Part shown: positions 5,713 to 32,000 of the stretch, in pieces
Position numbering within the stretch: position 1 is the first letter of the stretch
Layout of the letters: every line of letters begins with the position of its first letter
Assembly (NCBI RefSeq): GCF_000018105.1
Contig: NC_009929.1
Coordinates: 120,001-152,000, forward strand
Reading direction: 5' to 3'
DNA length: 32,000 bases
Source of the DNA: Acaryochloris marina MBIC11017
GTDB lineage: Bacteria > Cyanobacteriota > Cyanobacteriia > Thermosynechococcales > Thermosynechococcaceae
Program-made: the position numbers and the translations under genes
The notes under the pieces: model-generated
What the model saw: the letters and a program-made list of their open reading frames with translations, nothing else
What the model was told of the DNA's origin: nothing
Database searches by the model: none

Positions 5713-5726
5713 AGGCGGAGTTGCGG

Positions 5727-8721: not shown

Positions 8722-8723
8722 CC

Positions 8724-9515: not shown

Positions 9516-9518
9516 ACC

Positions 9519-11060
9519 ATGGAGGCTCCCAAACTCGATATTTTGAAACCCGTACTCCAACACATCTTTGCGGCCTTTGATCAGGTGGAAGGTGAGTATC
9601 CATTCGAGTTGCAGAGTCAGGAAATTGGCATTGTGACTTCTTTAGGTCATGGTATTGCCCGAGCGACTGGCCTGTTGCAGGTGCAATCGGAGGAGTTAGT
9701 CAAATTTCCCGGCGATCGGATGGGGCTAGCCTTCAACTTAGATCCAGATGAGGTGGGTTTGATTTTGTTGGATGATGGACATTCCCTGAAGGCAGGGTGT
9801 GAGGTCCAGCGCACAGGCCGGGTTTTGGATGTCCCCGTAGGAGAGGGTTTACTGGGTCGAGTCGTGGATGCAACCGGTCGTCCGTTGGATCAACGAGGAT
9901 TAGTGACTGCGCAAGAACGACGCCCCGTTGAACGGGAGGCTCCTGCCATCATGGACCGGGCTCCTGTAACCGTGCCCCTTCAGACAGGCATTAAGGCCAT
10001 TGATGCTCTTATTCCTATTGGTCGGGGACAGCGGGAACTGATTGTTGGTGATCGGCAAACGGGAAAAACTGCGATTGCCGTCGATACTATCCTCAACCAA
10101 AAAGATCAGGATGTGATTTGTGTGTATTGCGCCATTGGTCAGCGCAGTTCTGCCGTGGCCAAGCTAATTGCTGAGCTTCGCAATCGTGGGGCGATGGACT
10201 ACTGCATTGTCGTGGTAGCGGAGGGGGAAGCCTCACCCGGCCTGCAATATATCACCCCCTATGCTGCGACCACGATGGCAGAGTACTTTATGGAACAAGG
10301 GCAAGATGTGTTGATTGTTTATGACGATCTGATTCAACATGCCCGAGCCTATCGTGAGCTATCGCTTCTATTGCGCCGCCCGCCGGGACGAGAAGCCTTT
10401 CCAGGAGATATTTTTTATATTCATGCTCGGCTGCTGGAGCGGGCGACGTGCCTGCGGCCTGAGTTAGGGGGAGGCTCTCTAACGGCGTTGCCCATTGTCG
10501 AGACGGAAGCCCAAAATCTATCGGCCTATATCCCCACGAACTTAGTCTCAATTACAGATGGACAAATCTATCTCACCCCTGATTTGTTTCAAAAGGGAAT
10601 ATTCCCTGCCGTTGATGTGGGCAAATCGGTTTCCCGAGTCGGAGGCAAAGCCCAGCTTCCTGCTTACCGAGATGTTGCGGGCGATTTACGACTGTCCTAC
10701 ACGCAGTTTGAAGAATTGGAATCTTTTGCTCGGTTTGGAACCCGTTTAGAAGAATCCACTCGGCAATCTTTAGAGCGAGGTCGTCGGGTGCGTGAAGTGC
10801 TGCAACAACCTCAATTTCAGCCTTTACCCGTTGCAGAGCAAATTGCTGTAATGCTAGCGGTGACTCAGGGACAGTTTGATCTCGTGCCCATTGAGCAAGT
10901 GTCCCAAGCCCAACAGCTTATAGGAGAAGCGATACGACGGGAGCTACCGAATATTTGCGATCGCATCCAGAATGCAGGGCAGTTAAGTGAAACGGATCGG
11001 GAGACGTTGCTGAACTGGATCGCCAACCACATATTAAAGGACTCAGACAATGAGTTGTAA
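9519..11060 (+). CDS. atpA: N-type F-ATPase alpha subunit
   Basis: 513 aa with Walker [16 protein letters not shown] and [12 protein letters not shown]. The ATG lies 3 nt after the atpF stop. Confidence 0.93.
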
Positions 11061-11154
11061 TGACTAAATCTAAAGGCCTGCTCTATGCCCTGAAGCCCAT
11101 CCATTGATGATGTCTGCAATAACCAGTCAACATTCATACCCGGCCATTAACATC

Positions 11155-12033
11155 ATGCAAACCCTAGAAACCCTTAAGCGAAAAATTGCCAGCACTCAGG
11201 AGTTGCAGACCGTTGCTAAAACGATGAAAGCTCTAGCCGCCGCCAATATCCGTCAGTATGAACAGGCTGCCAATGCCCTTCAGCACTACCGCCAGACCTT
11301 GGCGATGGCGATACAAATTCTCCGAATAAATTATCCGGATACGTTAACTCACCTGAGACCCCGTGCGCACCCTCGTTTGGGAATAGTGATTTTCGGTTCG
11401 GATCAGGGGATGTGTGGTCGCTTCAATGAGCAGTTGTCAGAGATGGTGATTCAGCACCTAGAGCAGCACTCTTCTCAGGGTGGGCAACCCCTTCTGTTAG
11501 GGATGGGAGCCCGAATTTGCGATAGCATCATTGATCAAGGTTACGCCATTGAGCGATATCTTTCGGTTCCAGCCTCAGTTGACGGCATCACATCTAAGGC
11601 CCAAACGATCGTTGTCCAGCTTGAACAATGGCGTAACCAATGTCAGGTAGACCAAATTTGGGTGTTCCATAATCAACCCATCCGTGGTCATACCAGTACC
11701 CCCCACCGACAACAGCTCTTTCCCCTTGAATCTGACCGTGATCGCTCCTCCTCCTGGTCGACTCGCTGTCGTCCAATGGTCTTTCTGAGTCGAGAGAGAT
11801 TGTTCTCAGCCATATTTCGGCAGCATTTTTTTGTTGCCCTATACCAAGCCTGCGCTGAGTCCCTAGCCAGTGAAAATGCCAGTCGCTTGACCTCAATGCA
11901 GTTAGCGCAAACCAATATTGCTGAACATTTGATGGAGCTACAAGCTGCTTTTCAACAGCAACGCCAAACAAAAATCACGGAAGAGTTGCTGGATATCGTG
12001 TCAGGCTTTGAGGCCCTTAACCAATCCCACTAG
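11155..12033 (+). CDS. atpG: N-type F-ATPase gamma subunit
   Basis: The N-terminal helix MQTLETLKRKIASTQELQTVAKTMKALAAA and the C-terminal helix SENASRLTSMQ...ITEELLDIVSGFEAL are typical of gamma. The upstream in-frame starts TTG 11104 and ATG 11107 cannot be excluded. Confidence 0.82.
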   Translation: MQTLETLKRKIASTQELQTVAKTMKALAAANIRQYEQAANALQHYRQTLAMAIQILRINYPDTLTHLRPRAHPRLGIVIFGSDQGMCGRFNEQLSEMVIQHLEQHSSQGGQPLLLGMGARICDSIIDQGYAIERYLSVPASVDGITSKAQTIVVQLEQWRNQCQVDQIWVFHNQPIRGHTSTPHRQQLFPLESDRDRSSSWSTRCRPMVFLSRERLFSAIFRQHFFVALYQACAESLASENASRLTSMQLAQTNIAEHLMELQAAFQQQRQTKITEELLDIVSGFEALNQSH

Positions 12034-17181: not shown

Positions 17182-17700
17182 TCAAATGGAGTCTTCTGAA
17201 ACAACCGTTTCTCCTTGAATCACCAAGACAGAACAAGGGGCATGGTGGACGATATGGTTGCTGACACTCCCAAGAAAAAGTTCCTTGAGTCCCGTGCGAC
17301 CATGGCGTCCCACGACAATCAGATCAGCGTGCCAGTCTTTAGCCCGTTTACAAATCTGAGGCCCTGGATTACCTAATTCAGTCTCAAAGGTTGTCTTTAT
17401 ACCTTGATGCTCTGCTTTTAGGCAAAATTCTTGCAACCATAGTTTGGATTCCGCAATTTGTGCGTCCCAGGCTTGCCTTGCCAACTCGTAATCCACAGCA
17501 GATGGAGAAAGGTAACCTGATTCTAAAGGAGTCCCTACCGGTGAGATCGTTGAATTACCCAAAGGATTAATTTCTGCCTCTACACTATGAAACAGCTTTA
17601 CCTCAGCTGCATGTAATTTTGCTTCTACCAATGCCTGTTCATAAACTGCAGGTTGAAGGAAGGAAGTATCTAGTGCAACCAAAATGCGATGATATCTCAT
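17182..17700 (-). CDS. Universal stress protein (single UspA domain)
   Basis: ILVALDTS...DLIVVGRHGRTGLKELFLGSVSNHIVHHAPCSVLVI is a USP ATP-binding-type motif. ATG 17700 is preceded on the minus strand by GGAGGAATCCTG. I consider the longer ORF-track start at 17817 unlikely. Confidence 0.8.
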   Translation of the reverse strand: MRYHRILVALDTSFLQPAVYEQALVEAKLHAAEVKLFHSVEAEINPLGNSTISPVGTPLESGYLSPSAVDYELARQAWDAQIAESKLWLQEFCLKAEHQGIKTTFETELGNPGPQICKRAKDWHADLIVVGRHGRTGLKELFLGSVSNHIVHHAPCSVLVIQGETVVSEDSI

Positions 17701-17730
17701 CAGGATTCCTCCATAGAAATAACAACCGTC

Positions 17731-17757
17731 TTGACAGTTCCCATCCCCCCCTATATC
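17731..17757 (+). promoter_or_regulatory. Sigma70-like promoter candidate with a C7 tract in the spacer
   Basis: TTGACA (17731-17736) is followed by a 15-nt spacer that ends in CCCCCCC (17745-17751), then TATATC (17752-17757). It points toward the ferredoxin-nitroreductase gene. This is a sequence pattern only. Confidence 0.25.
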
Positions 17758-18078
17758 TCCATGGTAGAGCTTTATTTTCACAAGCAGCGATAAAAGATTT
17801 TGCCGCAGAGCTGGCAAGTAATTGGAAATATGGCTTTATTCTTGTCTCCAGCGGAGGGGTTTCGTCAACGCTCATCGATTAGGCGAGGGGGGACGGGGAT
17901 AGACAATTGGCACCCTCACAAATTGCTCATTTAGTATGCCTAGGCTCAAAGATAGAGATGGCAATATCAGTCAAAGTTAGTCCTATAGCAGGGGGGGACT
18001 TCACCTGTGATGTGAGGACATCCTGGTGTCAGAAGCGAAACATCAGCCAGCATGTGCAAAGGCTAAGGAGTCAGCATT

Positions 18079-18951
18079 ATGGCGACTATCCAGATTGATG
18101 CCGAACGCTGTCAGAAATGTGGAAAATGTGTGCAGATTTGTCCAACGATCTTTGCACAACATACCAAAGGGGCAATTCCTCACTTGCTAGACACTACTCG
18201 ATGTATCGAATGTGGGCATTGCGTCGCCATTTGTCCCAGCGAGGCGATTTCTCATTCGAGTTTTCCGTCTGGCACCATCGCTCCAATCCAGCCAGAACAA
18301 CTGCCCGATACGGCACAATTCATGGAACTATTGCGATCGCGCCGTTCCATTCGTGAATTCAGCAAGAGGCAAGTTGATCGGGCACTGATTGAACAAATTA
18401 TTGAGGCAGCCTGCTTTGCGCCCAGTTCCCACAATGTCCAAAGTACAGAGTACATCGTCGTCCAAGACCCCGCCATGCGCCAGCAAATTGTTGAACTGAC
18501 CATCGCTCAATACCGACAGTGGCGCAAACTACTCGGCAATCCAATCGCACGAACCCTGACACGGCTGGTGAGAGGCTCAACCGGGCAAGCCACGTTAGAC
18601 GAACTACGCGAAGCCTTTACAAACCTAATCAACCAGTACGGTCAGGGAAGCGACCCCATTCTGCGAGAAGCTCCTACCCTGCTGATCTTCCATGGCGATC
18701 GTCACATCGGTTTCGCTGGGGTTAACGCCAACCTTGCCTTGCAAAATGCCAGTTTAGTGTGTGAAACCTTGAAGTTGGGTGCTTTTTATACTGGCTATGT
18801 CGTTGCTGGCAGTAATTTTAATCCTCGGCTGGCCAGACTACTGAAACTCCCACCAAATCACAAAATCTATGCTGGTTTAGCAATCGGTCATCCTAGATTT
18901 CACTATAAAAATTGGATTGAGCGCAAACCTACTCAGATTCAATGGTTTTAA
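18079..18951 (+). CDS. 2x[4Fe-4S] ferredoxin domain fused to a nitroreductase-family flavoprotein
   Basis: Two CxxCxxCxxxCP motifs (CQKCGKCVQICP and CIECGHCVAICP) are followed by nitroreductase-type LLRSRRSIREF...APSSHNVQ. The ATG is preceded by AAGGAG. Confidence 0.85.
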   Translation: MATIQIDAERCQKCGKCVQICPTIFAQHTKGAIPHLLDTTRCIECGHCVAICPSEAISHSSFPSGTIAPIQPEQLPDTAQFMELLRSRRSIREFSKRQVDRALIEQIIEAACFAPSSHNVQSTEYIVVQDPAMRQQIVELTIAQYRQWRKLLGNPIARTLTRLVRGSTGQATLDELREAFTNLINQYGQGSDPILREAPTLLIFHGDRHIGFAGVNANLALQNASLVCETLKLGAFYTGYVVAGSNFNPRLARLLKLPPNHKIYAGLAIGHPRFHYKNWIERKPTQIQWF

Positions 18952-19212
18952 GACCTGAAATCGCCAGACAGTTCTGATTCTTCAGAATAACTTAAGCTTG
19001 TGAAGCATACTGAACGGTTAGTGTAACCCCGGTTGAAATTTTCACTAGCCATAAGCGGCTAAAGCTCATGTTTTCCTCATTATGTTGCTCTATAACCCTA
19101 AGCAGAAAAGCCAAGAATAGATGTTTGAGTCAGTCTTCCCTTCTGGAAGTTCGACGGAAATAGAAATCATCAGTAAAAGCTTGACTAGAGCGGAATACTT
19201 TAGGAGGTTGTC

Positions 19213-20286
19213 ATGTTGAAAAAAATTCTGGTGGCTCTAGATCATTCAGCCTTTAGCCAGAAAACCTTTATGCAATCTCTGGTTTTAGCCAAGGCAACCC
19301 ATGCAAAGCTGATGCTGTTTCATGTCATCTCATCGACTGAGGAAGGATATCCTCCTTATCCCTTGATGCCAGGTGTGTTGGAGGAGTTTGACCTGTCATA
19401 TGCTGGAGTCGCAAACTCTTATCTCAATGACTTAGATGTCTTCAAAGCCAGCAGTTTTGAGTTACTCAGATCTCGAGCCAATCAGGCTAAAGAAAAGGGT
19501 CTGACCGTTTTCTACCAACAATCCATGGGAGATCCAGGTCGAGAGATTTGCGAAATCTCTCGACAATGGAAAGCGGATACGATCATCATCGGACGCCGCA
19601 GCCGAAATCTTCTTAGCAAAGTTCTATTGGGCAGTGTTAGCAACTACGTCACACACCATGCTCCTTGTTCAGTGTTGATTGTCCACCACCAGGATGTGCC
19701 GGAGTTCATCCCCAAACAATCTATAAATACTTTAGAGGCGAATAAACTGTCTTTCGAAGAATGGCGCGGAAAGTTGTCTTACCGCAGTATCTTAGTGGCC
19801 TTGGATGGGGGTGACATTAACCAGCCTATCGTTAATAGAGCAATAAATCTTGCCAAGAGAATGTCCACAGCTCGGTTGATGTTGCTGCATGTCTTGCCCC
19901 ATGATGTGGCAAAAGTTCCCATTCCTAGTCCCCCTCCAACCGCAATTGCTCAGCAACGGCTGGATAACTATCCTAGTTTGCGTGATGACATCCTCTACAG
20001 CCAACAACGACAATGGAATGCCTATGATAGTGATTGCTTACCCCAATTGCGATCCTATACTGCGATCGCAAGGGAAGCAGGTATTCCAACTGAATTTATT
20101 CAACAACCTGGATCTCCCGGTGAAGTCATTTGTGAATTTGCTAAGAACAGATCATCAGACTTAATTCTAGTGGGTAATCGAGGTCGTTCAGGACTTAGCG
20201 AAATGCTTCTTGGAAGTGTGGGGAAATATGTTGCGAACCATGCGTCCTGTTCCGTGATGGTCGTTCGTCCTCAGCAACCGGCATGA
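19213..20286 (+). CDS. Tandem universal stress protein (two UspA domains)
   Basis: Two repeats of the pattern ILVALD...(I/L)(I/L)(I/V)G(R/N)R(S/G)R...LLGSV(S/G)xYVxxHAxCSV(L/M)(I/V)V. The ATG is preceded by AGGAGG. Confidence 0.85.
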   Translation: MLKKILVALDHSAFSQKTFMQSLVLAKATHAKLMLFHVISSTEEGYPPYPLMPGVLEEFDLSYAGVANSYLNDLDVFKASSFELLRSRANQAKEKGLTVFYQQSMGDPGREICEISRQWKADTIIIGRRSRNLLSKVLLGSVSNYVTHHAPCSVLIVHHQDVPEFIPKQSINTLEANKLSFEEWRGKLSYRSILVALDGGDINQPIVNRAINLAKRMSTARLMLLHVLPHDVAKVPIPSPPPTAIAQQRLDNYPSLRDDILYSQQRQWNAYDSDCLPQLRSYTAIAREAGIPTEFIQQPGSPGEVICEFAKNRSSDLILVGNRGRSGLSEMLLGSVGKYVANHASCSVMVVRPQQPA

Positions 20287-20333: not shown

Positions 20334-20867
20334 TTGAGTGAAGGGAGTCAAACTATTGTGGATGGCAAACCTCATCCCAGTGGAGATCAGCGTTTTAGGG
20401 TGCTAGAGGCAACGATGAAACGTCATCAATATCAGCCCAATTCACTGATTGAAGTTTTGCATAAGGCTCAGGAATTGTTCGGATATTTAGAACGCGACAT
20501 CCTATTACACATTGCCCACAGTTTAAAGTTACCCCCTAGTCAAGTCTATGGTGTAGCCACCTTCTATCACTTTTTCTCGCTAACACCTTCTGGACGCCAT
20601 ACCTGTGTGGTTTGTATGGGAACGGCATGTTTTGTCAAAGGGGCTGCATCACTCCTGTCAACAGTGGAACAGATCGCTCACATTCAAGCTGGGGAAACTA
20701 CTCAAGATGGAGGCTTGTCACTCAGCACTGCTCGTTGCCTGGGGGCCTGTGGGAGTGCTCCTGCTGTGGTGTTGGATGGTCAAGTGGTTGGCTATCAAAC
20801 CTCAGAAAACTTAGGTCAGCAAGTCACGCAAATGATGGACCATCCTCAATCTAAGGTCGCAACATAA
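20334..20867 (+). CDS. hoxE: Bidirectional hydrogenase diaphorase subunit HoxE (NuoE-like, 2Fe-2S)
   Basis: HPSGDQRF...KRHQYQPNSLIEVLHKAQE matches cyanobacterial HoxE. The cluster cysteines are CVVCMGTAC and CLGACGSAP. The start is non-ATG: TTG 20334, or GTG 20358 after GAAGGGAG. Confidence 0.88.
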   Translation: MSEGSQTIVDGKPHPSGDQRFRVLEATMKRHQYQPNSLIEVLHKAQELFGYLERDILLHIAHSLKLPPSQVYGVATFYHFFSLTPSGRHTCVVCMGTACFVKGAASLLSTVEQIAHIQAGETTQDGGLSLSTARCLGACGSAPAVVLDGQVVGYQTSENLGQQVTQMMDHPQSKVAT

Positions 20868-22523
20868 ATGGATTTACAAGAGCTACAAACCCTTGCTGAG
20901 CGAGAACAAGAGATTCTCGATGCGCCTTGCATCCGCTGCTGTACGGTGGGGGGCTGTTTATCTGCTAATGCCTTGGCAGTAAAAGAACAAATTGAAGTTG
21001 AGATCGCAACTCAAGACCTCAACCCTCCTATGCACGTTCGGGGGGTGGGCTGCATGGGACTGTGTAGCCGAGGTCCCCTAGTCCGACTAGACCCCGCAGG
21101 CATTCTCTACGATCAAGTAACCCCCGAAGACGCCCCTGAACTGGTCCACGCCTGCCATAAAACCCTCCAACCCCATCTGCCTAAAGCCTTATCAAATAGT
21201 TCTCCGCTCCAACCCTCCTCTTATCAGCCCCGACATCACCCTTTCTTCACCCTGCAACACCCCATCGTCCTCGAAAACAGTGGTCATATTGACCCTAAGG
21301 AAATCAAGGATTATATGGCCCAAAAAGGCTATCTAGCCCTTACCCAAGCCCTTTACGATATGACCCCCAGTGATGTAATTGATCAGATTACTCAAAGTGG
21401 TCTTCGAGGGCGAGGCGGCGGCGGATACCCCACAGGCTTGAAATGGTCAACAGTCGCCAAAATGCCCCCTGGACAAAAGTATGTGATTTGCAATGGTGAT
21501 GAAGGTGACCCAGGTGCCTTTATGGATCGCAGTGTCTTAGAAAGTGATCCCCATCGGGTGTTAGAGGGGATGGCAATTGCAGCCTACGCTGTCGGTGCCA
21601 ACCAAGGCTACATCTATATTCGAGGTGAGTATCCTCTCGCCATCAATCACCTCGAAACGGCCCTGCGTCAAGCTCGCAAGCAAGGTTTACTCGGTAGTCA
21701 AATTTTTGAGTCTCCCTTTGACTTTCGGATCGATATCCGTATTGGGGCGGGGGCCTTTGTTTGTGGCGAGGAAACAGCCCTAATGGCCTCCATCGAAGGG
21801 AAGCGTGGATTACCTCACCCTCGACCACCTTACCCTGCTGAATCTGGACTCTGGGGTTGTCCAACATTGATTAATAATGTGGAAACTTTTGCCAATATCG
21901 CTCCGATTATTCGCAATGGGGCTGAATGGTTTGTTGGGATTGGTACAGACAAGAGCAAAGGAACCAAAGTGTTTTCCTTAGCGGGCAAGATCCAAAATAC
22001 CGGATTGATTGAAGTCCCCATGGGTACCTCCCTGCGCCAAATTGTTGAACAGATGGGCGGGGGTGTCCTTGATGGATCGGCTAAAGCAGTGCAAACGGGT
22101 GGCCCCTCAGGGGGATGTATTCCTGCCCATGCCTTTGATACACCCGTAGATTATGAATCTCTGACCCGTTTGGGGTCCATTATGGGGTCCGGTGGCATGA
22201 TTGTCATGGATCAGGCCACCAATATGGTGGATGTCGCTCGTTTCTTTATGGAATTTTGCATGGAAGAGTCCTGTGGTAAGTGTGTTCCCTGTAGAGCAGG
22301 AACGGTTCAGCTTTACCAGTTACTCACAAAAATCTGTGATGGAAAAGCAAGAAAAGAGGATTTAGAGTCTCTAAACCAACTTTGCGAAATGGTCAAGGAT
22401 ACTAGCCTATGTGGCCTTGGAAAATCTGCCCCCAATCCTATTCTTAGTACCCTACGTTTTTTCAAAGATGAGTACTTAACGCTGATGCATAATGAGGGTT
22501 CTGGCGATTATCACCCCCCATAA
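20868..22523 (+). CDS. hoxF: Bidirectional hydrogenase diaphorase subunit HoxF (NuoF-like; FMN/NAD(P)H, Fe-S)
   Basis: N-terminal thioredoxin-like 2Fe-2S domain, [23 protein letters not shown] and the 4Fe-4S motif [10 protein letters not shown]. The ATG immediately follows the hoxE TAA. Confidence 0.93.
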
Positions 22524-22660: not shown

Positions 22661-23729
22661 GGCACTGTTCATTTAAGAAGTGACTGCTAGGATGATTCTG
22701 CAGTATCAGTTTCAGAGCAATGCAATGCATCCATTGTCAAAGTGAGAACGTCGTTAAGAACGGAACTAAGACGCTGAAAACAGCTCAAGTGGTTCAGTAC
22801 TTTCTGTGCAAAGACTGTGGTCGTCGCTTCAACGAGCGTAGTGGGACGCCGATGGCGAGATTGAGAACGCCAGTGGAGACGATATCAATGGCCATCAATG
22901 CCCGCACGGAAGGCTTAGGGATTAGAGCCGCAGGGAGAGTACTCAGGAAATCTCCCAACAGTATTATCCTTTGGGAGAAGCGTTTATCCGCACAATTATC
23001 AAATTTCTCTCCTCCTTCTCCAAAAGAATCAGAGGTCACAATTGAAGGCGATGAAGTGTACACCCGCGTAGGTGAGAATCTCCCCCCCCCTGGCTTAGTG
23101 AAGGTTGGACCATTCATTTCATCGACCGTGAGAGTCGCTATTGGTTCGAGGCTCACGCGGGTCTTAAGGATGAATCATTATTTGAGAAAAGTGTCAAAGC
23201 TGCTTGGGATTGGGCTAAACCCAGTTCATCGATTCGTTGGTTCACAGATGGAGAACGTCGATACTCCAAGGTGTTGTGGAAGCTAGCGAGTACTTACTTG
23301 CCCAGGAGTACCACGACCCAGGCCTATCCTTTTCGCAAAGTATGGCGAGCGGGTTTAGAGGTGGCGATGAAGATCAAAGGTTCCCAAGGAAAACCTCGGG
23401 TAGTGTGGGTTAATCGAGAGCATCCTTATACGGCCATTAGCCCCAAGAGCGATGTTCATGCCAATCATCTTGAAGCCCTCCACAGTTCTTTGAGACGACG
23501 GGCTAGCGGTTATCGTAGACGCCAGAATCACTATGCCAAAACCGTTGAGGGATTACAAAGAGCCCTGAACGTGCAGCGATTGATTCACAATTGGTGTCGT
23601 ACTCACTACAGCCATGGATACCAGCGAACCCCAGCAATGGTGATGGGATTTATCCAAAGGCCCGTTAAGATTGGCGAAGTGTTGACCGTCAGAGCTTTTA
23701 ATTGCCTCACTTCTTAACTGAACAGTGCC
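22661..23729 (+). mobile_element. IS1-family insertion sequence (1069 bp)
   Basis: The 23-bp terminal inverted repeats (22661-22683 GGCACTGTTCATTTAAGAAGTGA versus the reverse complement of 23707-23729) match at 22/23 positions. They begin GGnnnTG, as IS1-family ends do. The element is flanked by 9-bp direct repeats and has a two-ORF transposase joined by a -1 frame change. Confidence 0.85.
22720..23717 (+). CDS. IS1-type transposase (InsA-like zinc-finger/HTH part plus DDE part, joined only by a -1 frameshift in a C9 run)
   Basis: - Frame 1: CIHCQS...CKDCGRRF zinc finger, an HTH (GIRAAGRVL) and IEGDEVYT.
- Frame 0 opens at 23076, just before the C9 run (23082-23090). It reads PWLSEGWTIHFIDRESRYWF...WFTDGERRY...HANHLEALHSSLRRR, which is DDE-like, and runs to the stop at 23717. 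Confidence 0.75.
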
Positions 23730-23738
23730 GCATGCAAA
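23730..23738. repeat. Right copy of the 9-bp target-site duplication GCATGCAAA
   Basis: It is identical to 22652-22660 and directly abuts the right inverted repeat. It contains the present ATG (23732) of the downstream gene. Confidence 0.85.
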
Positions 23739-24691
23739 ATCCTGTTGAACCAAGCCGCTTCCCTCATCCCCCAGTAAAGGTATGGGGGCGAGGCGTTAGG
23801 CTGACTTTGCTGACCACTCTTTGTAGTCTCTTCACCCTAGCTAACCCTCAGCTTGTTTCCGCAGAAACGGTCCTTGAAAAAATAGAACGTACCAGCACAG
23901 TAACCGCTGGAACGAACAAGAATACCCTTCCCTTTGCCTTCCAAGATGAGCAAGGGCAATTCCAGGGGTACTCGATTGAAATGCTGAAACAGATACAGGC
24001 CCAATTATCGAAAAAACTTGGTAAAGAGATTAATCTCGAACTTGTTGCGCTGACCCCCAACGAACGAATTCCTAAATTAGTCGCAGGGGAAGTAGACATT
24101 GTCTGTGATGCGAGCAGCTATACCTGGGAGCGGGACAAGGATATAGACTTTTCCGTCAGCTATGGTTTGACAGGCACTCGCTTGTTGATTAAGCAAGGGA
24201 AAAAGGCATGGGAACCTGAGATGTTGGTGAATCAGAAAATAGCTGCTGTGGCGGGCACAACGAATGAGATTGCGATTCGTCGAGCGCAGCCCAAAGCCCA
24301 AATCATCGTTCTCCCAGATCATACTCAGGGTTACAAAGCGCTGGAGCAGGGAACAGTTGATGCATTTGCAGCAGACGGCATTTTACTCGAAGGTTGGCTA
24401 CAAACCAGCCAGAACCCCGAGGACTTCACCGTTGTCGGGTATTTCTCAAGAGAGGGCATTGCCTGCATGGTGCCTGAGAATAATTCTAAATTTGTTAATC
24501 AAGTGAATTACTCACTCGTGCGTTTTATGGAGGGTTACTTAAAGGGTAAAGAACCCTATGTCAAAACGTTTGATCGTTGGTTTGGCCCTGAGGCTAAAGT
24601 CCCTCTCACTCAAGATCTGAGATCTTTAGTCCTAGAAACCATGCAGCTAGTGATTGATTTTAAAGAAGAAATTCCTGAAAGCGATCTTTAA
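23732..24691 (+). CDS. Periplasmic solute-binding protein, family 3 (amino-acid ABC-type), orphan
   Basis: Signal peptide LTLLTTLCSLFTLANPQLVSA, followed by a PBP type 2 pattern (TVTAGTNKNTLPFAF, GYSIEMLK, DIVCDASSYT, DFSVSY, VDAFAADGILL). No permease or ATPase genes are nearby. Confidence 0.8.
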   Translation: MQNPVEPSRFPHPPVKVWGRGVRLTLLTTLCSLFTLANPQLVSAETVLEKIERTSTVTAGTNKNTLPFAFQDEQGQFQGYSIEMLKQIQAQLSKKLGKEINLELVALTPNERIPKLVAGEVDIVCDASSYTWERDKDIDFSVSYGLTGTRLLIKQGKKAWEPEMLVNQKIAAVAGTTNEIAIRRAQPKAQIIVLPDHTQGYKALEQGTVDAFAADGILLEGWLQTSQNPEDFTVVGYFSREGIACMVPENNSKFVNQVNYSLVRFMEGYLKGKEPYVKTFDRWFGPEAKVPLTQDLRSLVLETMQLVIDFKEEIPESDL

Positions 24692-25221: not shown

Positions 25222-25941
25222 ATGGATGTTAAGACCCTCAAGATTGACGATCAACTGATCAGTGCTCGGGGAGATGAAACAATCCTTGAGGCCGCTACCG
25301 CATCAGGGATTCATATTCCGACGCTATGCAACTTGCAGGGTGTTTCCTTATGGGGAGCCTGTCGACTCTGTTTAGTCGAGGTTAGTGGAAGTTCTAAGCT
25401 ATTGGCCGCTTGCGTCACACCAGTGGCAGAGGGGATGATCGTTCAAACCCAAACCAAACGGCTTAAACATTATCGGCGCATGATCGTTGAACTGCTATTT
25501 GCGGAAGGGAATCATATCTGTTCAGTATGTGTTTCCAATCACCACTGCGAATTGCAGGATCTTGCTATTGAGATGGGGATTGATCATGTGCGCTTTACCT
25601 ATCAATTCCCAGATCGCTCTGTTGATATTTCCCATCCTCAATTTGGCGTTGATCATAATCGCTGTGTTTTATGTACACGTTGTATTCGAGTTTGTGATGA
25701 GATTGAAGGGGCTCATACCTGGGATATGGCAGGTCGAGGCCGGAAGTCCCGAGTGATCACAGATTTGAACCAGCCTTGGGGGGAAGCCGAGAGCTGTACC
25801 GCTTGTGGAAAGTGTGTCAATGCCTGTCCCACAGGAGCCATCTTTCGACGTGGTTCAACGGTTGCGGAGATGGAGCACGATCGGAGCCAACTTGAATTTA
25901 TTTCTACTGCGAGAACGAGGCGAGAATGGGTGCAAAAGTGA
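25222..25941 (+). CDS. hoxU: Bidirectional hydrogenase diaphorase subunit HoxU (NuoG N-terminal-like Fe-S protein)
   Basis: It has a 2Fe-2S motif (CRLCLVEV), NHICSVCVSNHHCELQ, CVLCTRCIRVCDEIEG and CTACGKCVNACPTGA. It is colinear with my recollection of Synechocystis HoxU. Confidence 0.93.
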   Translation: MDVKTLKIDDQLISARGDETILEAATASGIHIPTLCNLQGVSLWGACRLCLVEVSGSSKLLAACVTPVAEGMIVQTQTKRLKHYRRMIVELLFAEGNHICSVCVSNHHCELQDLAIEMGIDHVRFTYQFPDRSVDISHPQFGVDHNRCVLCTRCIRVCDEIEGAHTWDMAGRGRKSRVITDLNQPWGEAESCTACGKCVNACPTGAIFRRGSTVAEMEHDRSQLEFISTARTRREWVQK

Positions 25942-26061: not shown

Positions 26062-26607
26062 ATGGCAAAACTGAAGTTAGCGACTGTTTGGCTAGGCGGA
26101 TGCTCAGGATGCCATATGTCTTTCCTAGACCTTGACGAGTGGTTATTTGAGTTGGCCCACCAAGTCGATCTGGTCTACAGCCCTTTTATGGATGCCAAGC
26201 AGTATCCACAAGAAGTGGATGTGGCACTCGTCGAAGGCGCAATAGCCAATACCGATCATTGGGAGATGATTCATCAGGTTCGTGATTGCACTCAATACCT
26301 GATTGCCTTTGGGGATTGTGCTGTTACGGGGAATGTCACCGCCTTACGTAATCTTTTGGGTACTGCGGAGGGGGTACTTGAGCGGTCTTACATAAACTTG
26401 GCTGATCTGGTGCCTCAGATTCCTGCAGAGGAAGCGATTGTCCCCCCTTTATTGGATTGGGTTAAACCCGTACATACCGTTGTTCCCGTCGATCTCTATT
26501 TACCGGGTTGCCCACCATCACCTTCTCGAATCAAATTTGTATTAGAAGCGCTACTGCAGGGGAAGAGGCCTCAACTCGAGGGTCGAGATCAAATTAAATT
26601 CGGGTGA
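26062..26607 (+). CDS. hoxY: [NiFe] hydrogenase small subunit HoxY
   Basis: MAKLKLATVWLGGCSGCHMSFLD, FGDCAVTGN and LPGCPP supply the proximal cluster ligands. ATG 26062 is preceded by GGAGGTAGG; the ORF-track start at 26044 is TTG. Confidence 0.92.
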   Translation: MAKLKLATVWLGGCSGCHMSFLDLDEWLFELAHQVDLVYSPFMDAKQYPQEVDVALVEGAIANTDHWEMIHQVRDCTQYLIAFGDCAVTGNVTALRNLLGTAEGVLERSYINLADLVPQIPAEEAIVPPLLDWVKPVHTVVPVDLYLPGCPPSPSRIKFVLEALLQGKRPQLEGRDQIKFG

Positions 26608-26680: not shown

Positions 26681-27226
26681 ATGCTTAAAGTTAGAGACAT
26701 TATGACCCAAGAGGTGATTGCGATTCAGGATACTGCAACAGTGGCACAAGCCATTGCTCTAATGCAATACCATAAAGTCCGCTCCCTCATTATCGAGCAC
26801 CCTGAAGGTCAAACCGCTTACGGGATCATCACTGAGCGAGATATTGTTTACCGAGTCATGGCTGTTGGCAAAGATCCCCATGAAATTGGCGTTCAAGAGC
26901 TTGTCCGCGAACCCTGTATTACAGCCCATCCTGATCTCACTGTGGAAGAAATGGCTCAATTGTTTGCAGCAGCAGGCATTCAGAGAGCGCCAGTAATTGA
27001 TGGACAGCAGCTTTTAGGCATCATTTCCGTCACTGACTTAGTGATGAAAACGGATGGAAAGCAGAACTATCAAGCCGATTGGCTCGCGTTGCAAGTTGAA
27101 AATGCGTTAAAGCATGCCCGGATTATTTGTGGTGATCCGCAAACCCAGATTTCAAAAGAATGCTCTGTAGCCTGGGATGTGGTTGAAGCTTTTGAAGACC
27201 AAGCTGCCTTAAACGGAGCTATTTAG
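26681..27226 (+). CDS. CBS-pair protein with a short C-terminal CP12-like module (CBS-CP12 fusion, copy 1)
   Basis: Two CBS motifs (VRDIMTQEVIAI...GIITERDIV and ITAHPDLTV...GIISVTDLV) are followed by CGDPQTQISKEC-SVAWDVVEAFE, that is, a CP12 N-terminal Cys pair plus an AWDxVEE core. ATG 26681 is preceded by AAGGAG. Confidence 0.8.
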   Translation: MLKVRDIMTQEVIAIQDTATVAQAIALMQYHKVRSLIIEHPEGQTAYGIITERDIVYRVMAVGKDPHEIGVQELVREPCITAHPDLTVEEMAQLFAAAGIQRAPVIDGQQLLGIISVTDLVMKTDGKQNYQADWLALQVENALKHARIICGDPQTQISKECSVAWDVVEAFEDQAALNGAI

Positions 27227-27272
27227 TCCTTCAGAACAGGCTACTTTATCACTTTCAGTGTAGGTACCTCAG

Positions 27273-28700
27273 ATGCACACTAAATCATCGAGACAATATT
27301 TTAGACAAGTGCTGTTGTTTCTAATGGCCTTGGTCATTACCCCATTGCTATTAGCGGTTTCTGCGGTTGGAGCCCCCAATTTCGTGACGCAAGATCAGAT
27401 CACCGTGGGGGCAACAGAGGTCATTCAAGGTAACTATTATGCAACTGGGGACCGTATAACGGTTGACGGGACCTTAAAAGATAATCTGTTTGCAGCAGGA
27501 GACACCATTCAACTATCGGGCACCGTTGAGAAGGATGTTTACTTAGCGGGTGATGAAATAACGATTGATGGCACTGTTAAAGGCGATGCTATTCTGGCCG
27601 GCGCTTTGGTTGCCCTCAATGGGTCTGTTGAAGGCGATTTAATCGCCGCAGGGCAAGCCGTGGTGGTGAACGGAACGGTTCAAGACGACGTGCGGATAGC
27701 AGGAGAGGCACTGCTTCTCAAAAATCAGGCTCGGGTGAAAGATGACATGATCGCCGCAGGGCTGAGCCTGGAAAGTCAACCCCAAACGTCCATCGGTGGC
27801 ACTCTCACGGTTGCGAGTGGTCAAGCACTACTGGCAGGAACGGTTGATCAGGATGTTGTGGGGGGTATGGGAGGACTAACCTTAGAGGGGACAGTGGGTC
27901 AAGATGTGGCCGTTACCGTCGGTGATAACCAGACTTGGAAACCTATATTCGGACCTAGCCCTCGCCTTAAGATTCCTGATGTGCCGGCAGGATTAACCCT
28001 CACAGATTCGGCCCAAGTCAAAGGTCGGTTGACCTACAAATCACCAACTACTGCCTCCCTAAAAGATGGATCACAAGTGACAGGTAAAATCACGCATCAA
28101 CCGATTCCAGAATGGGAACCGACGCCAGTCAAGCCGACGAATATCGTGCTAGATCAACTGCAGCGCTTGCTGACGATTGGGTTAGTGGGATGTGCCATGC
28201 TTTGGGCATTTCCAAAGTGGACAGAAGGATTAACGCAGAATATTCAGACTCGACCGTTGAGAACGTTGGGTTGGGGCATTGTGACCAGTGTGTTGGTGGG
28301 AGTAGCAAGTGTTGTGATCGCAGTTCTGACCATCCTTGCATTTATTGTGCTTATCTTGACCCTCCAAGGATTAGCCTGGCCCATTCTGGGGGTCGGAACC
28401 CTCGCTAATCTGGCCCTATGGGTCGGTATTGGCAGCTTCGTGAGTTTGATTGCCCCCGTATTAATCAGCAACCTAGGTGGACGCTGGCTCTGCAGCCAAT
28501 TCAATTTGAATAAGACCGCGAACCGATTTATCCCATTCCTGATGGGGGTAGTGGTTCTGATGTTGATTACCGCTATTCCCCTGATCGGCGGAATCATCAG
28601 CATTGTCATTATTTTCTTGAGCTTAGGTGCACTCTGGAATTGGGGAAGGTCACGGTGGGCTAAGCCCCCCTTGCAAGCTCAGGAGGCACTAGTGGGTTGA
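27273..28700 (+). CDS. Signal-peptide protein with a ~8-turn 17-residue-repeat beta-helix (bactofilin-like) and a C-terminal 4-TM domain
   Basis: - N-terminus: LLFLMALVITPLLLAVSAVGA.
- aa 59-216: 17-residue repeats G-x-x-(I/V)-x-(I/L/V)-x-G-(T/S)-V-x-x-D-(I/V/L)-x-x-A, e.g. GDTIQLSGTVEKDVYLA, GDEITIDGTVKGDAILA, GALVALNGSVEGDLIAA, GQAVVVNGTVQDDVRIA.
- aa ~297-465: four long hydrophobic segments. Confidence 0.75.
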   Translation: MHTKSSRQYFRQVLLFLMALVITPLLLAVSAVGAPNFVTQDQITVGATEVIQGNYYATGDRITVDGTLKDNLFAAGDTIQLSGTVEKDVYLAGDEITIDGTVKGDAILAGALVALNGSVEGDLIAAGQAVVVNGTVQDDVRIAGEALLLKNQARVKDDMIAAGLSLESQPQTSIGGTLTVASGQALLAGTVDQDVVGGMGGLTLEGTVGQDVAVTVGDNQTWKPIFGPSPRLKIPDVPAGLTLTDSAQVKGRLTYKSPTTASLKDGSQVTGKITHQPIPEWEPTPVKPTNIVLDQLQRLLTIGLVGCAMLWAFPKWTEGLTQNIQTRPLRTLGWGIVTSVLVGVASVVIAVLTILAFIVLILTLQGLAWPILGVGTLANLALWVGIGSFVSLIAPVLISNLGGRWLCSQFNLNKTANRFIPFLMGVVVLMLITAIPLIGGIISIVIIFLSLGALWNWGRSRWAKPPLQAQEALVG

Positions 28701-28740
28701 GCGGAGATAGGTTCTGGCATAACCGATGGGAGAAATCGCA

Positions 28741-29367
28741 ATGATGAAAGTTGCAGACATTATGACTACAGAAGTCATCAAAATTCGGAATTCGGCGAAG
28801 GTTGCTGAGGCCGTCCGATTGATGCGACGACATGGAATTCATGCCCTAATTGTTGATCGGAACCATGAGCAAGATGCTTACGGAATTGTGACCGCCTTCG
28901 ATATCGTTGCGAAGGTAACGGCCTTTGGTCGTGATCCACGGCAGGTGAGAGTCTATGAAATTATGACGAAACCTTGTTTGGTACTCAATCCGGAACTCGG
29001 GGTCGAATATGCCGCACGATTATTGACCACTACCGGTATACATGCCGCACCCATTATCCAGTGGAGTCTGCTGGGCATTCTCTCAATCTCTGACATTCTC
29101 GATCAAGGGGATTTCTTGGAGAATCCCTTGGAGGTGGAGCTTGCTCAAAAAACACAGCAATTAATTGCGGACGCTCATGCAATTTGTAAGCAAAAGGGCA
29201 CTAACTCCAAAGCCTGTAGACAAGCTTGGCAAGACGTTGATGCAGTCCAAGCGGAAGCGGCTCATCAACGGGCCGAAAAGCTCGAAAAAACAGCTTTTGA
29301 AGCGTTTTGTGAGGAGTACCCAGAAGCCTTCAAAGATCGAGAGTATGATGCCTGGTGTAGTGGATAG
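28741..29367 (+). CDS. CBS-pair protein with a full-length but variant CP12 module (CBS-CP12 fusion, copy 2)
   Basis: The CBS pair (VADIMTTEVIKI...GIVTAFDIV and LVLNPELGV...GILSISDIL) is followed by CKQKGTNSKAC-RQAWQDVDAVQAEAAHQRAEK...FCEEYPEAFKDREYDAWC. ATG 28741 aligns with the start of copy 1; ATG 28726 is an alternative. Confidence 0.8.
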   Translation: MMKVADIMTTEVIKIRNSAKVAEAVRLMRRHGIHALIVDRNHEQDAYGIVTAFDIVAKVTAFGRDPRQVRVYEIMTKPCLVLNPELGVEYAARLLTTTGIHAAPIIQWSLLGILSISDILDQGDFLENPLEVELAQKTQQLIADAHAICKQKGTNSKACRQAWQDVDAVQAEAAHQRAEKLEKTAFEAFCEEYPEAFKDREYDAWCSG

Positions 29368-29404: not shown

Positions 29405-30889
29405 ATGCCTCAGAGAATCATCATTGATCCAGTCACTCGGATTGAAGGCCATGCCAAAATCTCGATTTACTTGGATGACGCAGGTGAAGTTACGGATGCT
29501 CGATTTCATGTGACGGAGTTTCGTGGATTTGAGAAGTTTTGCGAAGGCCGACCCTTTTGGGAGATGCCGGGGATTACCCCGCGCATCTGTGGGATTTGTC
29601 CAGTCAGCCACCTACTCGCGTCAGCGAAAGCTGGAGACCAGATTCTTGCCGTCCACATTCCTCCAGCGGCTGAGAAATTGCGCCGCTTAATGAACTTAGG
29701 ACAGATTATTCAGTCCCATGCCTTGAGTTTTTTTCATCTGAGTAGTCCTGACCTACTGTTGGGGTGGGAGAGCGATCCAGCTCAGCGAAATGTATTTGGC
29801 CTGATGGCCGCAGAGCCGGATCTGGCCCGCAGCGGTATCCGACTACGCCAGTTTGGTCAGGAGGTGATTCAGCATTTAGGAGGGCAGAAAATTCACCCGG
29901 CTTGGGCTGTCCCCGGAGGTGTGCGATCGGCTCTAACCGACCAGGGACGTGAACAAATCCGAGCGGGGTTGCTAGAGGTACGATCAACGGCCCTTTCAAC
30001 CCTGAAACGGTTCAAAGACTTGTTAGAAGACCATGCCAGTGAGGCTCGAATATTTGGGAATTTCCCCAGCTTATTTATGGGGTTAATCAACCCAAAGGGA
30101 CTCTGGGAACATTACCAGGGCTGTTTACGGTTTGTGGATAGTGTCGGCAATATCATTGCGGATCATCTTGATCCGAGCCAATTCCAGTCCTTTATTGGCG
30201 AAGCGGTTCAGACTGATTCTTATTTGAAGTCTCCCTACTATCGTCCCTTGGGCTATCCTGATCAGACTCCAGGTCTGTGCCGTTTAGAGAGTGGCATGTA
30301 TCGGGTGGGACCGTTAGCCCGACTCAACGTCTGCGATCGCATGGGCACACCCTTAGCCGATCAGGAATTGCAAGAATTCCGCCAGCGGGGCAATGGGACC
30401 GTTACCTCTTCCTTCTACTACCATTACGCTCGCTTAATTGAGATCTTGGCCTGTATTGAACGCATTGAGCAGCAGATAGAGGATCCAGGACTTTGTCAAC
30501 CGCCCTTAAGAGCCCAGGCAGATGTCAATCAATTAGAGGGGGTTGGAGTGAGTGAAGCACCACGGGGGACGCTGTTTCATCACTATCAAGTGGATGCAAC
30601 GGGGTTACTCCAATCCGTTAATCTGATCATCGCCACGGGGCAAAATAATCTGGCCATGAACCGCACCGTTGCTCAGATTGCTCGTCACTACCTCCATGGA
30701 CCCGATATTCCTGAATCGATGCTCAATCGGGTCGAAGCAGGTATTCGGGCCTTTGATCCTTGTTTAAGTTGCTCGACTCATGCGGCAGGCCAGATGCCAC
30801 TTCATATCCAGTGCAAATCAGCACATAGTGGCCAAGTCCTAAGTGAGGTATGGAGAACCTCAACGGGGGAATTTCAAGTTAAAGGTTGA
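29405..30889 (+). CDS. hoxH: [NiFe] hydrogenase large subunit HoxH
   Basis: It carries the N-terminal Ni-Fe ligand motif [10 protein letters not shown] and the C-terminal [10 protein letters not shown] 35-aa extension follows, of the kind removed by the maturation endopeptidase. Confidence 0.95.
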
Positions 30890-30922: not shown

Positions 30923-31159
30923 TTAGACAGGTGGGCTGATATTGTCCAAGAGTTGTAAGGTCCGCTCAGCTTCTTCAACATCAATAACGTTCAAAGCAAA
31001 CCCCACATGGACAATGACATAGTCACCCACCTCCGCATGGGGAACATAAGCAAGGCTGACGTCCTTCAGAACGCCTCCAAAACTCACTTTCCCCGCCCGT
31101 AACAGTGGGTCATCATGATCCAAGATGCTGACAATCTGGCCGGGTACCGCTAAGCACAT
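30923..31159 (-). CDS. hypC: Hydrogenase maturation chaperone HypC
   Basis: 78 aa beginning with the invariant MCLAVPGQIV (Cys2). It overlaps the hypF stop by 10 nt. Confidence 0.9.
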   Translation of the reverse strand: MCLAVPGQIVSILDHDDPLLRAGKVSFGGVLKDVSLAYVPHAEVGDYVIVHVGFALNVIDVEEAERTLQLLDNISPPV

Positions 31160-32000
31160 GGTGAATCTGCCTCGACAAAGGGCTGTTGTCTGTCAAAAGT
31201 CTCATTGACCTTGGGAAAGCGTCCCGCATAGTGGCGATGGGCAGCCATGATTTGTCCAAGGGCAATCCCTCCATCATTAGTAGGGACTTGCTGATGCCAG
31301 TAGGGGCGATACTGGTTTTCCCGCAACCTGTGGATGGCTTTTTCACTCAAATATTGATTTTGAAAACATCCGCCCGTGAGCACGATATATGGCTCGCCGA
31401 TTTGATGGGCGATCTGGACAATGATTTCAACCAAAGTATTGTGAAACTTAGTGGAGATCCAGCTAGTATCAACGCCCTGGTCAATATCGGCCAGAATGGC
31501 TATCAGCATCGGTTCCCAATCCATCACGAAGGGCAATGAAGAGGAGAGATGGAAAGGATAGTCGTCTTCCGTTGCAACCCTGCCCAAGATAGACTCTAAG
31601 GCCATCGCTGCTTGCCCCTCAAAATGGGTGGTTTGCATCAGGTCCGTGAGGGATGCGATCGCATCAAAGAATCGCCCCACACTTGAGGTCAGAGGGGTAT
31701 TCAGAGACCGATCCAGCATTGACTGCAATACCTGGGCAGACGGCTGGGAAAAAGCCTTCAAGGGCGCTAAGCCTTCCCACTCAAAAATCTCGCCCCCAAA
31801 GCAGGTATAGAGCAGCCCCATCGCCGTTCGTCTGGGCTCACGAGCGGCTTGGTCACCACCGGGTAAGAAAAAGGGACGCCAGTAGCCGACCCGCTCAAAC
31901 CCAGTTGGTGTGATTTGCAGAAATTCTCCGCCCCAGACGGTCTCATCCAATCCATAACCCGCCCCATCCCAAGCAATTCCCAGAACAGGAGCTGCTAAAT
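31150..32000 (-). CDS. hypF: Carbamoyltransferase HypF, C-terminal part (5' end outside the window)
   Basis: The minus-strand frame is open to the window edge, reading LAAPVLGIAWDGAGYGLDETVWGGEF upstream of the ORF-track TTG. Kae1/YrdC-like C-terminal motifs are present (VLTGGCFQNQYL, VPTNDGGIALGQ). Confidence 0.88.
   Translation of the reverse strand, partial: LAAPVLGIAWDGAGYGLDETVWGGEFLQITPTGFERVGYWRPFFLPGGDQAAREPRRTAMGLLYTCFGGEIFEWEGLAPLKAFSQPSAQVLQSMLDRSLNTPLTSSVGRFFDAIASLTDLMQTTHFEGQAAMALESILGRVATEDDYPFHLSSSLPFVMDWEPMLIAILADIDQGVDTSWISTKFHNTLVEIIVQIAHQIGEPYIVLTGGCFQNQYLSEKAIHRLRENQYRPYWHQQVPTNDGGIALGQIMAAHRHYAGRFPKVNETFDRQQPFVEADSPCA

Follow-up and report, generated by a model that had tools for sequence, protein, structure and literature searches.

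We analyzed a 32,000-nucleotide stretch of DNA from Acaryochloris marina MBIC11017 (contig NC_009929.1, positions 120,001 to 152,000), referred to here as the window, which carries a cluster of hox genes for a bidirectional hydrogenase. Three genes on the same strand lie between hoxY (stop at 26607) and hoxH (ATG at 29405), the genes for the hydrogenase's small and its large subunit, and the four successive gaps measure 73, 46, 40, and 37 nt. These coordinates had been given in an earlier reading of the stretch (the sequence-only reading) and were confirmed here. The outer two genes, ORF1 and ORF3, encode CBS-CP12 proteins, in which a pair of CBS domains is fused to a CP12-like module, and the middle gene, ORF2, encodes a membrane protein of the DUF8173 family. 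This trio is conserved as a block in the Acaryochloris lineage, and each of its parts is also found alone between hoxY and hoxH in other cyanobacteria. The trio is a lineage-specific variant of a published arrangement, sharing with reported CBS-CP12 genes a position inside the hox cluster next to hoxH and differing in that it combines members of two ancient clades and has a membrane-protein gene placed between the two.

We surveyed hoxH loci by a scan anchored on HoxH, with one genome per species and the loci parsed by tblastn; the best 80 loci comprised 51 from cyanobacteria and 29 from Verrucomicrobiota, Planctomycetota, Chloroflexota, and others. One or more CBS-CP12 genes were located directly upstream of hoxH in 30 of the 51 cyanobacterial loci, which makes this the majority state in the cyanobacterial sample. 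The CBS-CP12 gene stood alone in 11 loci as the ORF3 type (clade A, described below) and in 14 as the ORF1 type (clade B). Two clade-A-type genes occurred in one locus, a clade-B gene followed by a clade-A gene without ORF2 in another (L011, Thermosynechococcaceae), the full trio in two (L008 and L009), and ORF2 followed by a clade-A gene in one (L035). ORF2 was alone in one locus (L057), and in the remaining 20 both CBS-CP12 and ORF2 genes were missing upstream of hoxH. Of the 29 non-cyanobacterial group-3d loci, not one had a CBS-CP12 gene, or any gene at all, between hoxY and hoxH (gaps of 5 to 160 nt), and among the surveyed loci the arrangement is restricted to cyanobacteria. Both CBS-CP12 clades are linked to hox or hyp genes; the clade-A gene of Adonisia is found instead behind hypA-hypB-hypF, within the same cluster.

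Across 32 loci, the median distance from the CBS-CP12 stop to the hoxH start was 32.5 nt. The distance was 20 nt or less in 10 of the 32, and in 6 the stop overlapped the hoxH start (TGATG or TAATG in L001, L010, L011, and L028). These overlaps and short gaps suggest that translation of the CBS-CP12 gene and hoxH may be coupled.

All three genes of the trio are intact, real genes under purifying selection, as judged from dN/dS values of 0.04 to 0.22. Compared with three relatives of increasing distance, dN/dS was 0.09 to 0.10 for ORF1, 0.14 to 0.22 for ORF2, and 0.04 to 0.09 for ORF3, and the range for hoxU, hoxY, and hoxH was comparable (0.04 to 0.19). GC content is uniform across the region, with that of the trio matching that of the neighboring genes. 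The ATG of ORF1 is preceded by the Shine-Dalgarno sequence AAGGAG and the ORF3 start at 28741 by GGGAGA; the chosen starts yield proteins of 181 and 208 amino acids (aa), which are the orthologue lengths (208 aa in all ORF3 orthologues). ORF1 is 100% identical to a 181-aa RefSeq protein listed as 'MULTISPECIES: Acaryochloris', and HoxH shares 97% identity with its counterpart in the Acaryochloris sp. IP29b_bin.137 genome. For hoxY, the ATG at 26062 is the likely start; an in-frame TTG is also present at 26044, and the RefSeq orthologue is 546 nt long.

The sequence-only reading had seen no hairpin terminators in the four gaps. A consensus scan, crude and therefore weak evidence, likewise found neither terminator-like nor sigma-70-like (promoter-like) sites in them, and an Rfam scan of the whole window, gaps included, found no RNA families or riboswitches. 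Because the gaps hold no terminator-like sites, the simplest reading would be that the trio is co-transcribed with hoxYH. The hox operon of Synechocystis 6803 presumably contains ORFs of unknown function as well, which likewise lie between structural hox genes and are presumed to be co-transcribed; the trio differs from such interspersed ORFs in that its members belong to recognizable families and recur in position across many lineages. The features of the cluster are listed in Table 1.

Table 1. Genes of the hox region; coordinates are positions in the window
Feature	Coordinates	Strand	Basis or remark
hoxE	20334-20867	+	Diaphorase gene, start of the hox cluster; Pfam 2Fe-2S_thioredx match
hoxF	20868-22523	+	Diaphorase gene; Pfam Complex1_51K and NADH_4Fe-4S matches
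Two unknown ORFs and solute-binding-protein gene	22720-24691		Between hoxF and hoxU
hoxU	25222-25941	+	NCBIfam HoxU equivalog, 426.9 bits (cut-off, 333)
hoxY (hydrogenase small subunit)	26062-26607	+	Pfam Oxidored_q6, 101.5 bits
ORF1 (181 aa; CBS-CP12 clade B, 'CBS-CP12-N-tr' type)	26681-27226	+	Domains, tree, alignment, dN/dS
ORF2 (475 aa; DUF8173-family membrane protein)	27273-28700	+	PF26514 matches of homologues, AlphaFold2, hydropathy/charge, dN/dS
ORF3 (208 aa; full-length CBS-CP12, clade A)	28741-29367	+	Pfam CBS and CP12, 5NMU match, dN/dS
hoxH (hydrogenase large subunit)	29405-30889	+	Pfam NiFeSe_Hases match
hypC (30923-31159) and 3' part of hypF	30923-31950	-	Pfam HupF_HypC and HypF_C_2 matches

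The full trio is confined to the Acaryochloris lineage, where it was found in the window, in L001, L002, L008, and L009, and on two plasmids. In Acaryochloris thomasi (L001), the order hoxU-hoxY-clade B-ORF2-clade A-hoxH is identical to that of the window, and the three proteins are 61 to 75% identical to their counterparts. The trio also occurs in two Acaryochloris metagenome-assembled genomes and on both matching complete plasmid records, those of A. marina S15 and Acaryochloris sp. 'Moss Beach', with which the hoxU-hoxH block of the window shares 91.7% DNA identity. The RefSeq annotation of the plasmid genes reads 'CBS domain-containing protein', 'polymer-forming cytoskeletal protein', and 'CBS domain-containing protein'. 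An arrangement unique to this strain and bounded by mobile-element scars, which the sequence-only reading had named as telling against it, was not what we found: the trio is kept at about 60% protein identity in A. thomasi, and no scars are present. A repeat search around the trio turned up nothing beyond the beta-helix repeats inside ORF2 and short matches due to chance; with no flanking repeats or scars, a recent mobile insertion of the trio was rejected. The copy in L002 (positions 1-3300, Logan assembly SRR12447975) is 77 to 94% identical to the window and follows a hoxY fragment at the contig start. Instead of hoxH, a hypA fragment and unrelated genes come after it, and the contig is explained either by rearrangement of the locus with loss of hoxH or by a chimeric assembly.

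Besides Acaryochloris, at least four lineages have an ORF2 homologue between hoxY and hoxH. The order is hoxY-ORF2-clade A-hoxH in Cyanothece SIO1E1 (L005) and bin J06639_1 (L035) and hoxY-ORF2-hoxH in Scytonema RU_4_4 (L006) and a genome from SRP128890 (L057); a partial metagenome contig (L088) has ORF2 and then a clade-A CBS-CP12 gene. In a crude family tree, the hox-linked copies fall on separate branches and do not form one clade. The linkage of ORF2 to hox would thus have been either acquired or retained repeatedly or else ancestral in cyanobacteria and often lost, and its repeated placement in this slot appears hard to ascribe to chance. Elsewhere, the homologue of Calothrix NIES-4101 (L007) is unlinked to hox, and in a metagenome scan anchored on ORF2, no relative of 80 had a hox gene beside it and 1 of 80 had a CBS-CP12 neighbor; common neighbors were radical SAM and PrsW-like genes, which looks like taxon-specific synteny. 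The closest homologue outside the Acaryochloris clade (a metagenomic sequence 52% identical to ORF2; L003:10001-15310) lies 480 nt upstream of, and on the same strand as, a pyruvate:ferredoxin oxidoreductase (PFOR) gene that is in several fragments, which is another link of the ORF2 family to fermentative low-potential electron metabolism.

These contexts bear on the possibility that the hoxY-hoxH spacer is a permissive landing site and that the trio, ORF2 especially, consists of unrelated passengers carried on the operon promoter, ORF2 being a general envelope protein. Many unrelated genes are indeed found in the hoxU-hoxY and hoxY-hoxH spacers of other cyanobacteria. For instance, some of the 20 loci with neither gene hold unrelated genes in the hoxY-hoxH interval. 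Different ORFs occupy this interval at L012:6644-7150, L013:1277-1819, L034:6269-7315, and L048:5674-7918; their labels, given from ORF sequence and hydropathy alone, are response-regulator receiver-like, nitroreductase-like, and a P-loop (GSGKT) ORF plus an ORF with predicted membrane helices. Also in favor of the passenger explanation are the wide occurrence of the DUF8173 family outside cyanobacteria with unrelated neighbors (radical SAM, PrsW-like), the unlinked Calothrix homologue, and the absence of ORF2 from L011 and its possible frameshift in 'Moss Beach'. We nevertheless consider it improbable, as at least five lineages, on separate tree branches, have an ORF2 homologue precisely in the hoxY-hoxH slot, which is very unlikely by chance, CBS-CP12 genes fill the slot in the majority of cyanobacterial loci, and a close ORF2 homologue adjoins PFOR, a functionally related fermentative enzyme.

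CBS-CP12 fusions reportedly were recognized as a cyanobacterial family by Stanley et al. in 2013. Both outer genes of the trio encode the CBS pair, matched by Pfam in two stretches each (81.9 bits for ORF1 and 78.9 bits for ORF3; cut-off, 24), and the G-h-h-T/S-x-x-D ligand motifs are kept in each CBS domain of the two proteins. The CP12 domain of ORF3 is complete (83.6 bits, profile positions 1 to 70 of 70), and that of ORF1 is the N-terminal half only (22.2 bits against a cut-off of 22.7, positions 4 to 41 of 70). ORF1 retains the N-terminal cysteine pair (CGDPQTQISKEC) and a core, AWDVVEAFE, close to the canonical CP12 AWD_VEEL, and then ends, an architecture corresponding to what Hackenberg et al. 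2018 (PMC6142219) call 'CBS-CP12-N-tr'. ORF3 resembles the structurally solved members of the family (PDB 5NMU, 5NPL, 5NVD), aligning end to end with Microcystis 5NMU (E 7.7e-63; residues 3-203 to chain residues 6-207). It retains the N-terminal cysteine pair, its core (AWQDVDAVQAE) is degenerate, and its C terminus ends ...FCEEYPEAFKDREYDAWCSG, with Asp at the canonical second cysteine of the C-terminal pair and the only later cysteine in the terminal WCSG. The first cysteine of that pair is Arg in L009 and 'Moss Beach'. Because the second cysteine is replaced in ORF3 and the internal one varies in this way, a conserved C-terminal disulfide appears unlikely.

Thus, both proteins depart from canonical CP12, the redox-switched disordered scaffold of the complex of GAPDH, CP12, and phosphoribulokinase (PRK). 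Each is fused to a CBS pair, ORF1 lacks the C-terminal GAPDH-binding half, and ORF3 has a degenerate core and a C-terminal cysteine pair that is noncanonical and not conserved among orthologues; the canonical C-terminal pair (C-x8-C) with GAPDH-binding tail was found in neither ORF1 nor ORF3. A different C-terminal motif, (D/N)WC(S/G)G, ends clade-A proteins in the window (29308-29367), L001, L005, L011, L018, L027, L042, L056, L078, and L082. It falls outside the description of canonical CP12, and conservation is higher for its terminal cysteine than for the internal one of the supposed C-terminal pair.

ORF1 and ORF3 are 41% identical over 176 residues (E 4e-42). A neighbor-joining tree built from 42 hox-linked CBS-CP12 proteins places the two in separate deep clades, clade A with proteins of Nostoc, Limnothrix, and Coleofasciculaceae and clade B with proteins of Leptolyngbya, Nodosilinea, and Leptothoe, and each clade is found singly at the same hox position in other cyanobacteria. 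On this tree the two are ancient paralogues. The description of the outer genes as paralogues with CP12-like C termini is upheld by domains and homology, but the implied local pairing is not: each groups with orthologues from other orders, and a recent tandem duplication was rejected. One further observation concerns ORF1. Its dS against the L008 copy (L008:2236-2769) is 0.745, at 85% protein identity, against dS values of 0.10 to 0.25 and identities of 89 to 98% for hoxU, hoxY, ORF2, ORF3, and hoxH. The dS of ORF1 is so far above that of its neighbors that it suggests recombination or allele exchange confined to this gene.

The sequence-only reading had hedged that linkage of CBS-CP12 genes to hox clusters may have been noted before, and this was right. 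Hackenberg et al. 2018 reported that Nostoc 7120 and Synechococcus 7002 carry such genes within their hox clusters and proposed for them a role in the neighboring pathway and not in PRK/GAPDH regulation (PMC6142219); co-expression of the gene with hox in Nostoc 7120 is mentioned there with reference to Sjoholm 2007. A phylum-wide hydrogenase survey (PMC5186783) makes no mention of CBS genes or interspersed ORFs, and a literature search on DUF8173, or on a bactofilin-like protein in hox clusters, found nothing relevant. The linkage is already known and functionally unexplored. What is new here is that the linkage is quantified, that the hox-linked CBS-CP12 proteins are seen to form two clades, and that a DUF8173 membrane protein is found linked to hox recurrently.

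By homology to the Microcystis CBS-CP12 protein, which binds AMP (PMC6142219), it is reasonable to propose that ORF1 and ORF3 sense AMP or another adenine nucleotide together with thiol redox state. The Microcystis protein, whose characterized properties are AMP binding and hexamer formation, comes from a TrxA neighborhood and not from hox. The target of such sensing is where the strongest rival explanation enters, namely that CBS-CP12 acts on PRK or other targets in carbon metabolism and that the hox operon merely times its production. The protein would be made at the switch to dark or anoxic fermentation, damp the Calvin cycle at high AMP, and never touch the hydrogenase. The sole functional data for the family, AMP-dependent inhibition of PRK by the Microcystis protein (PMC6142219), point in this direction, ORF3 is very similar to that protein (the E value is given above), and the neighborhood in the window is of a dark or low-energy type, with universal stress proteins, a PEP synthase-like enzyme, hyp genes, and an alternative ATPase operon. 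However, the slot upstream of hoxH is kept across two ancient clades, often with stop/start overlap, which is tighter than co-regulation needs, and in the truncated ORF1 type the second half of CP12, the C-terminal one, is missing. The hox-cluster CBS-CP12 of Synechococcus 7002 (A0199) was unable to replace canonical CP12 in Synechocystis (PMC9514657). We regard co-regulation alone as possible but, on this evidence, unlikely. Coupling of H2 metabolism to Calvin cycle shutdown through CP12 chemistry, one of the outputs first suggested for the trio, is not straightforward either, because CBS-CP12 does not form the GAPDH/PRK ternary complex (PMC6142219), ORF1 is without the C-terminal half, and ORF3 is without the canonical second cysteine.

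The middle protein, ORF2, begins with a hydrophobic helix that is a signal peptide or signal anchor. Its AlphaFold2 model, built on a 43-sequence alignment (mean pLDDT 88), consists of a helix (residues 6-32), a beta-helix (36-276), and further helices at 288-312, 314-326, 328-363, 365-409, 419-433, and 438-462. The beta-helix is acidic (17 K/R versus 31 D/E), and basic segments are found at the N terminus, at residues 313-330 and 403-417, and in the C-terminal tail. All four basic segments can be cytoplasmic only if the beta-helix is outside, which gives five membrane helices after it; the beta-helix (∼240 residues) is accordingly predicted to be extracytoplasmic, with only short basic loops facing the cytoplasm. 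A signal peptide, a beta-helix, and four transmembrane helices had been described earlier. The first two are borne out, the first as peptide or anchor, whereas the model and the positive-inside rule favor five helices.

Among 8,000 candidates scored, at least 252 relatives of ORF2 were found at E ≤ 0.001. Most of them carry PF26514 (DUF8173), and many add a weak match to PF04519 (bactofilin). The A. thomasi homologue, 61% identical, has a precomputed PF26514 match and the UniRef name 'DUF8173 domain-containing'; the family label of ORF2 comes from such precomputed matches of homologues. With a Pfam set that did not include this profile, and with NCBIfam, ORF2 matched no family even at E values up to 10, and it likewise had no match to the bactofilin profile PF04519 at that limit. 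Two homologues, P0014 and P0009, exceed the PF04519 threshold (31.5 and 34.6 bits versus 27.9), and the ORF2 family profile matches the Thermus bactofilin 6RIA at E 0.002; support for the earlier term 'bactofilin-like' is marginal. Like bactofilins (6RIA; Caulobacter BacA, 2N3D), ORF2 has a right-handed beta-helix with repeats rich in G-D/N turns, and its relatives are annotated as 'polymer-forming cytoskeletal protein', although the sequence similarity is weak. Bactofilins are small, cytoplasmic, and polymer forming, whereas ORF2 is a 475-aa integral membrane protein with its beta-helix predicted outside the cytoplasm. A Foldseek search of the whole model against the PDB returned only generic beta-helix proteins (best E 0.08) and no functional lead, and residues 283-475 predicted alone (16-sequence alignment; mean pLDDT 58) gave a model too poor for a fold search.

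Genes for nickel uptake are common near hydrogenase clusters, and ORF2, a polytopic membrane protein in a hydrogenase operon, could by analogy be a transporter or channel supplying the hydrogenase, for instance with nickel. We consider this very improbable. Only Gly, Pro, Trp, Leu, and Ala residues are invariant or nearly so in the membrane bundle, where no conserved His, Asp, Glu, or Cys was seen; the nickel-transporter idea was rejected because the membrane helices hold no conserved polar or metal-binding residues. In addition, ORF2 matched no transporter family in Pfam or NCBIfam, and its structural matches to transporters were no better than E ∼0.5.

In Acaryochloris sp. 'Moss Beach', the ORF2 orthologue on plasmid pMB02 (L168:11095-12524) is annotated as two overlapping coding sequences. 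The frameshift falls at a G-run of the window sequence, GTGGGGGGTATGGG, and reflects either true inactivation of the gene or a sequencing error in the homopolymer.

Taken with the survey, these observations lead us to favor, with a confidence that stops a little short of even, the explanation that the trio is an Acaryochloris-lineage elaboration of a common and already reported feature, CBS-CP12 directly upstream of hoxH, with the output of the sensors directed at the hydrogenase module. We propose that the three genes would be co-transcribed with hoxYH and their proteins made together with HoxY and HoxH. The full-length and truncated CBS-CP12 proteins would act as sensors of adenine nucleotides (probably AMP) and thiol redox state, and their output would bear on HoxYH activity, assembly with HoxEFU, or HoxH maturation, so that H2 turnover would be tied to energy charge and photosynthetic redox state. 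It is the tight, sometimes overlapping, junction with hoxH from which we infer an output on the hydrogenase. The DUF8173 protein would be a co-expressed membrane partner with its bulk facing the periplasm or thylakoid lumen, most likely serving either as a membrane-located docking or signaling partner for CBS-CP12 and Hox or in an envelope function under the same dark or anoxic conditions. The role of ORF2 is the least constrained part of this explanation and its weakest link.

It is important to note that several points weigh against an output on the hydrogenase or against a part for ORF2 in it. The sole biochemically characterized CBS-CP12 has PRK, and not a hydrogenase, as its target (PMC6142219). 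In 20 of the 51 cyanobacterial loci, CBS-CP12 and ORF2 genes are both missing upstream of hoxH, and Synechocystis 6803 has no CBS-CP12 at all (PMC6142219); thus CBS-CP12 is not required for Hox function generally. The hoxY-hoxH spacer in cyanobacteria is a hot spot for accessory genes. As for ORF2, its beta-helix is predicted to lie outside the cytoplasm, it is absent between the two CBS-CP12 genes of L011 and possibly frameshifted in 'Moss Beach', and 79 of the 80 relatives in the metagenome scan (31 to 46% identity) have no hox or CBS-CP12 neighbor. Of the sequence-only reading's proposal of an energy-charge and thiol-redox module, possibly with a membrane anchor, the sensing part remains reasonable by homology to the AMP-binding Microcystis protein. 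The anchor is weakened by the predicted extracytoplasmic beta-helix and by the wider DUF8173 family, which is overwhelmingly not hox linked.

Post-transcriptional regulation and the physiological purpose of the cyanobacterial bidirectional hydrogenase matter for bio-hydrogen work. In this context, a slot upstream of hoxH is common to two ancient CBS-CP12 clades and was joined repeatedly by an uncharacterized membrane protein, and Acaryochloris, whose plasmid holds the whole trio, provides a compact setting in which to study whether H2 metabolism is coupled to energy charge and redox state. The payoff is moderate, because the core linkage is already in the literature and the mechanism cannot be derived from sequence alone. 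A more far-reaching version, which we hold to be distinctly improbable, is that the DUF8173 protein and the two distinct CBS-CP12 sensors form a membrane-sited AMP/thiol control of HoxYH maturation, HoxEFU attachment, or localization. Partial membrane association of Hox and its gating by redox and energy have long been noted. If the far-reaching version were true, such a control point would provide a molecular basis for both, and the DUF8173 protein would be a previously unrecognized accessory component of the cyanobacterial bidirectional hydrogenase.

Other features of the hox cluster and its surroundings are as follows. The maturation genes hypC and hypF converge on the cluster from the minus strand. 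In the hoxF-hoxU interval are two unknown ORFs that overlap (188 and 148 aa; neither has a Pfam match) and a family-3 solute-binding protein gene, which is separated from hoxU by a 530-nt gap. Because of these intervening ORFs and the gap, hoxEF and hoxUYH may in this cluster be transcribed as separate units.

Upstream, an operon for an F-type ATPase occupies positions 3879-12033 of the window; its genes are ordered beta, (epsilon), a, (c), b, alpha, gamma, and no delta subunit gene was detected. We take this order to resemble that of alternative 'N-ATPase' operons. Unusually, the epsilon-sized ORF is followed by an inserted gene of the Na+/H+ exchanger family (6034-7263). Genes at positions 4-3715 and 17182-20286 code for an AIR-synthase-family protein similar to HypE, an enzyme resembling PEP synthase, a pair of universal stress proteins, and, at 18079-18951, a fusion of ferredoxin and nitroreductase; the L003 homologue of ORF2 has a similar Fer4-nitroreductase gene nearby. 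The window as a whole looks like an island of dark or low-oxygen metabolism, and its counterpart is plasmid borne in related Acaryochloris strains. Finally, L082, a contig labeled as belonging to a Sphingobacterium thalpophilum metagenome-assembled genome, carries a cyanobacterial-type hoxEFUY-CBS-CP12-hoxH cluster and is probably a mis-binned cyanobacterial contig.

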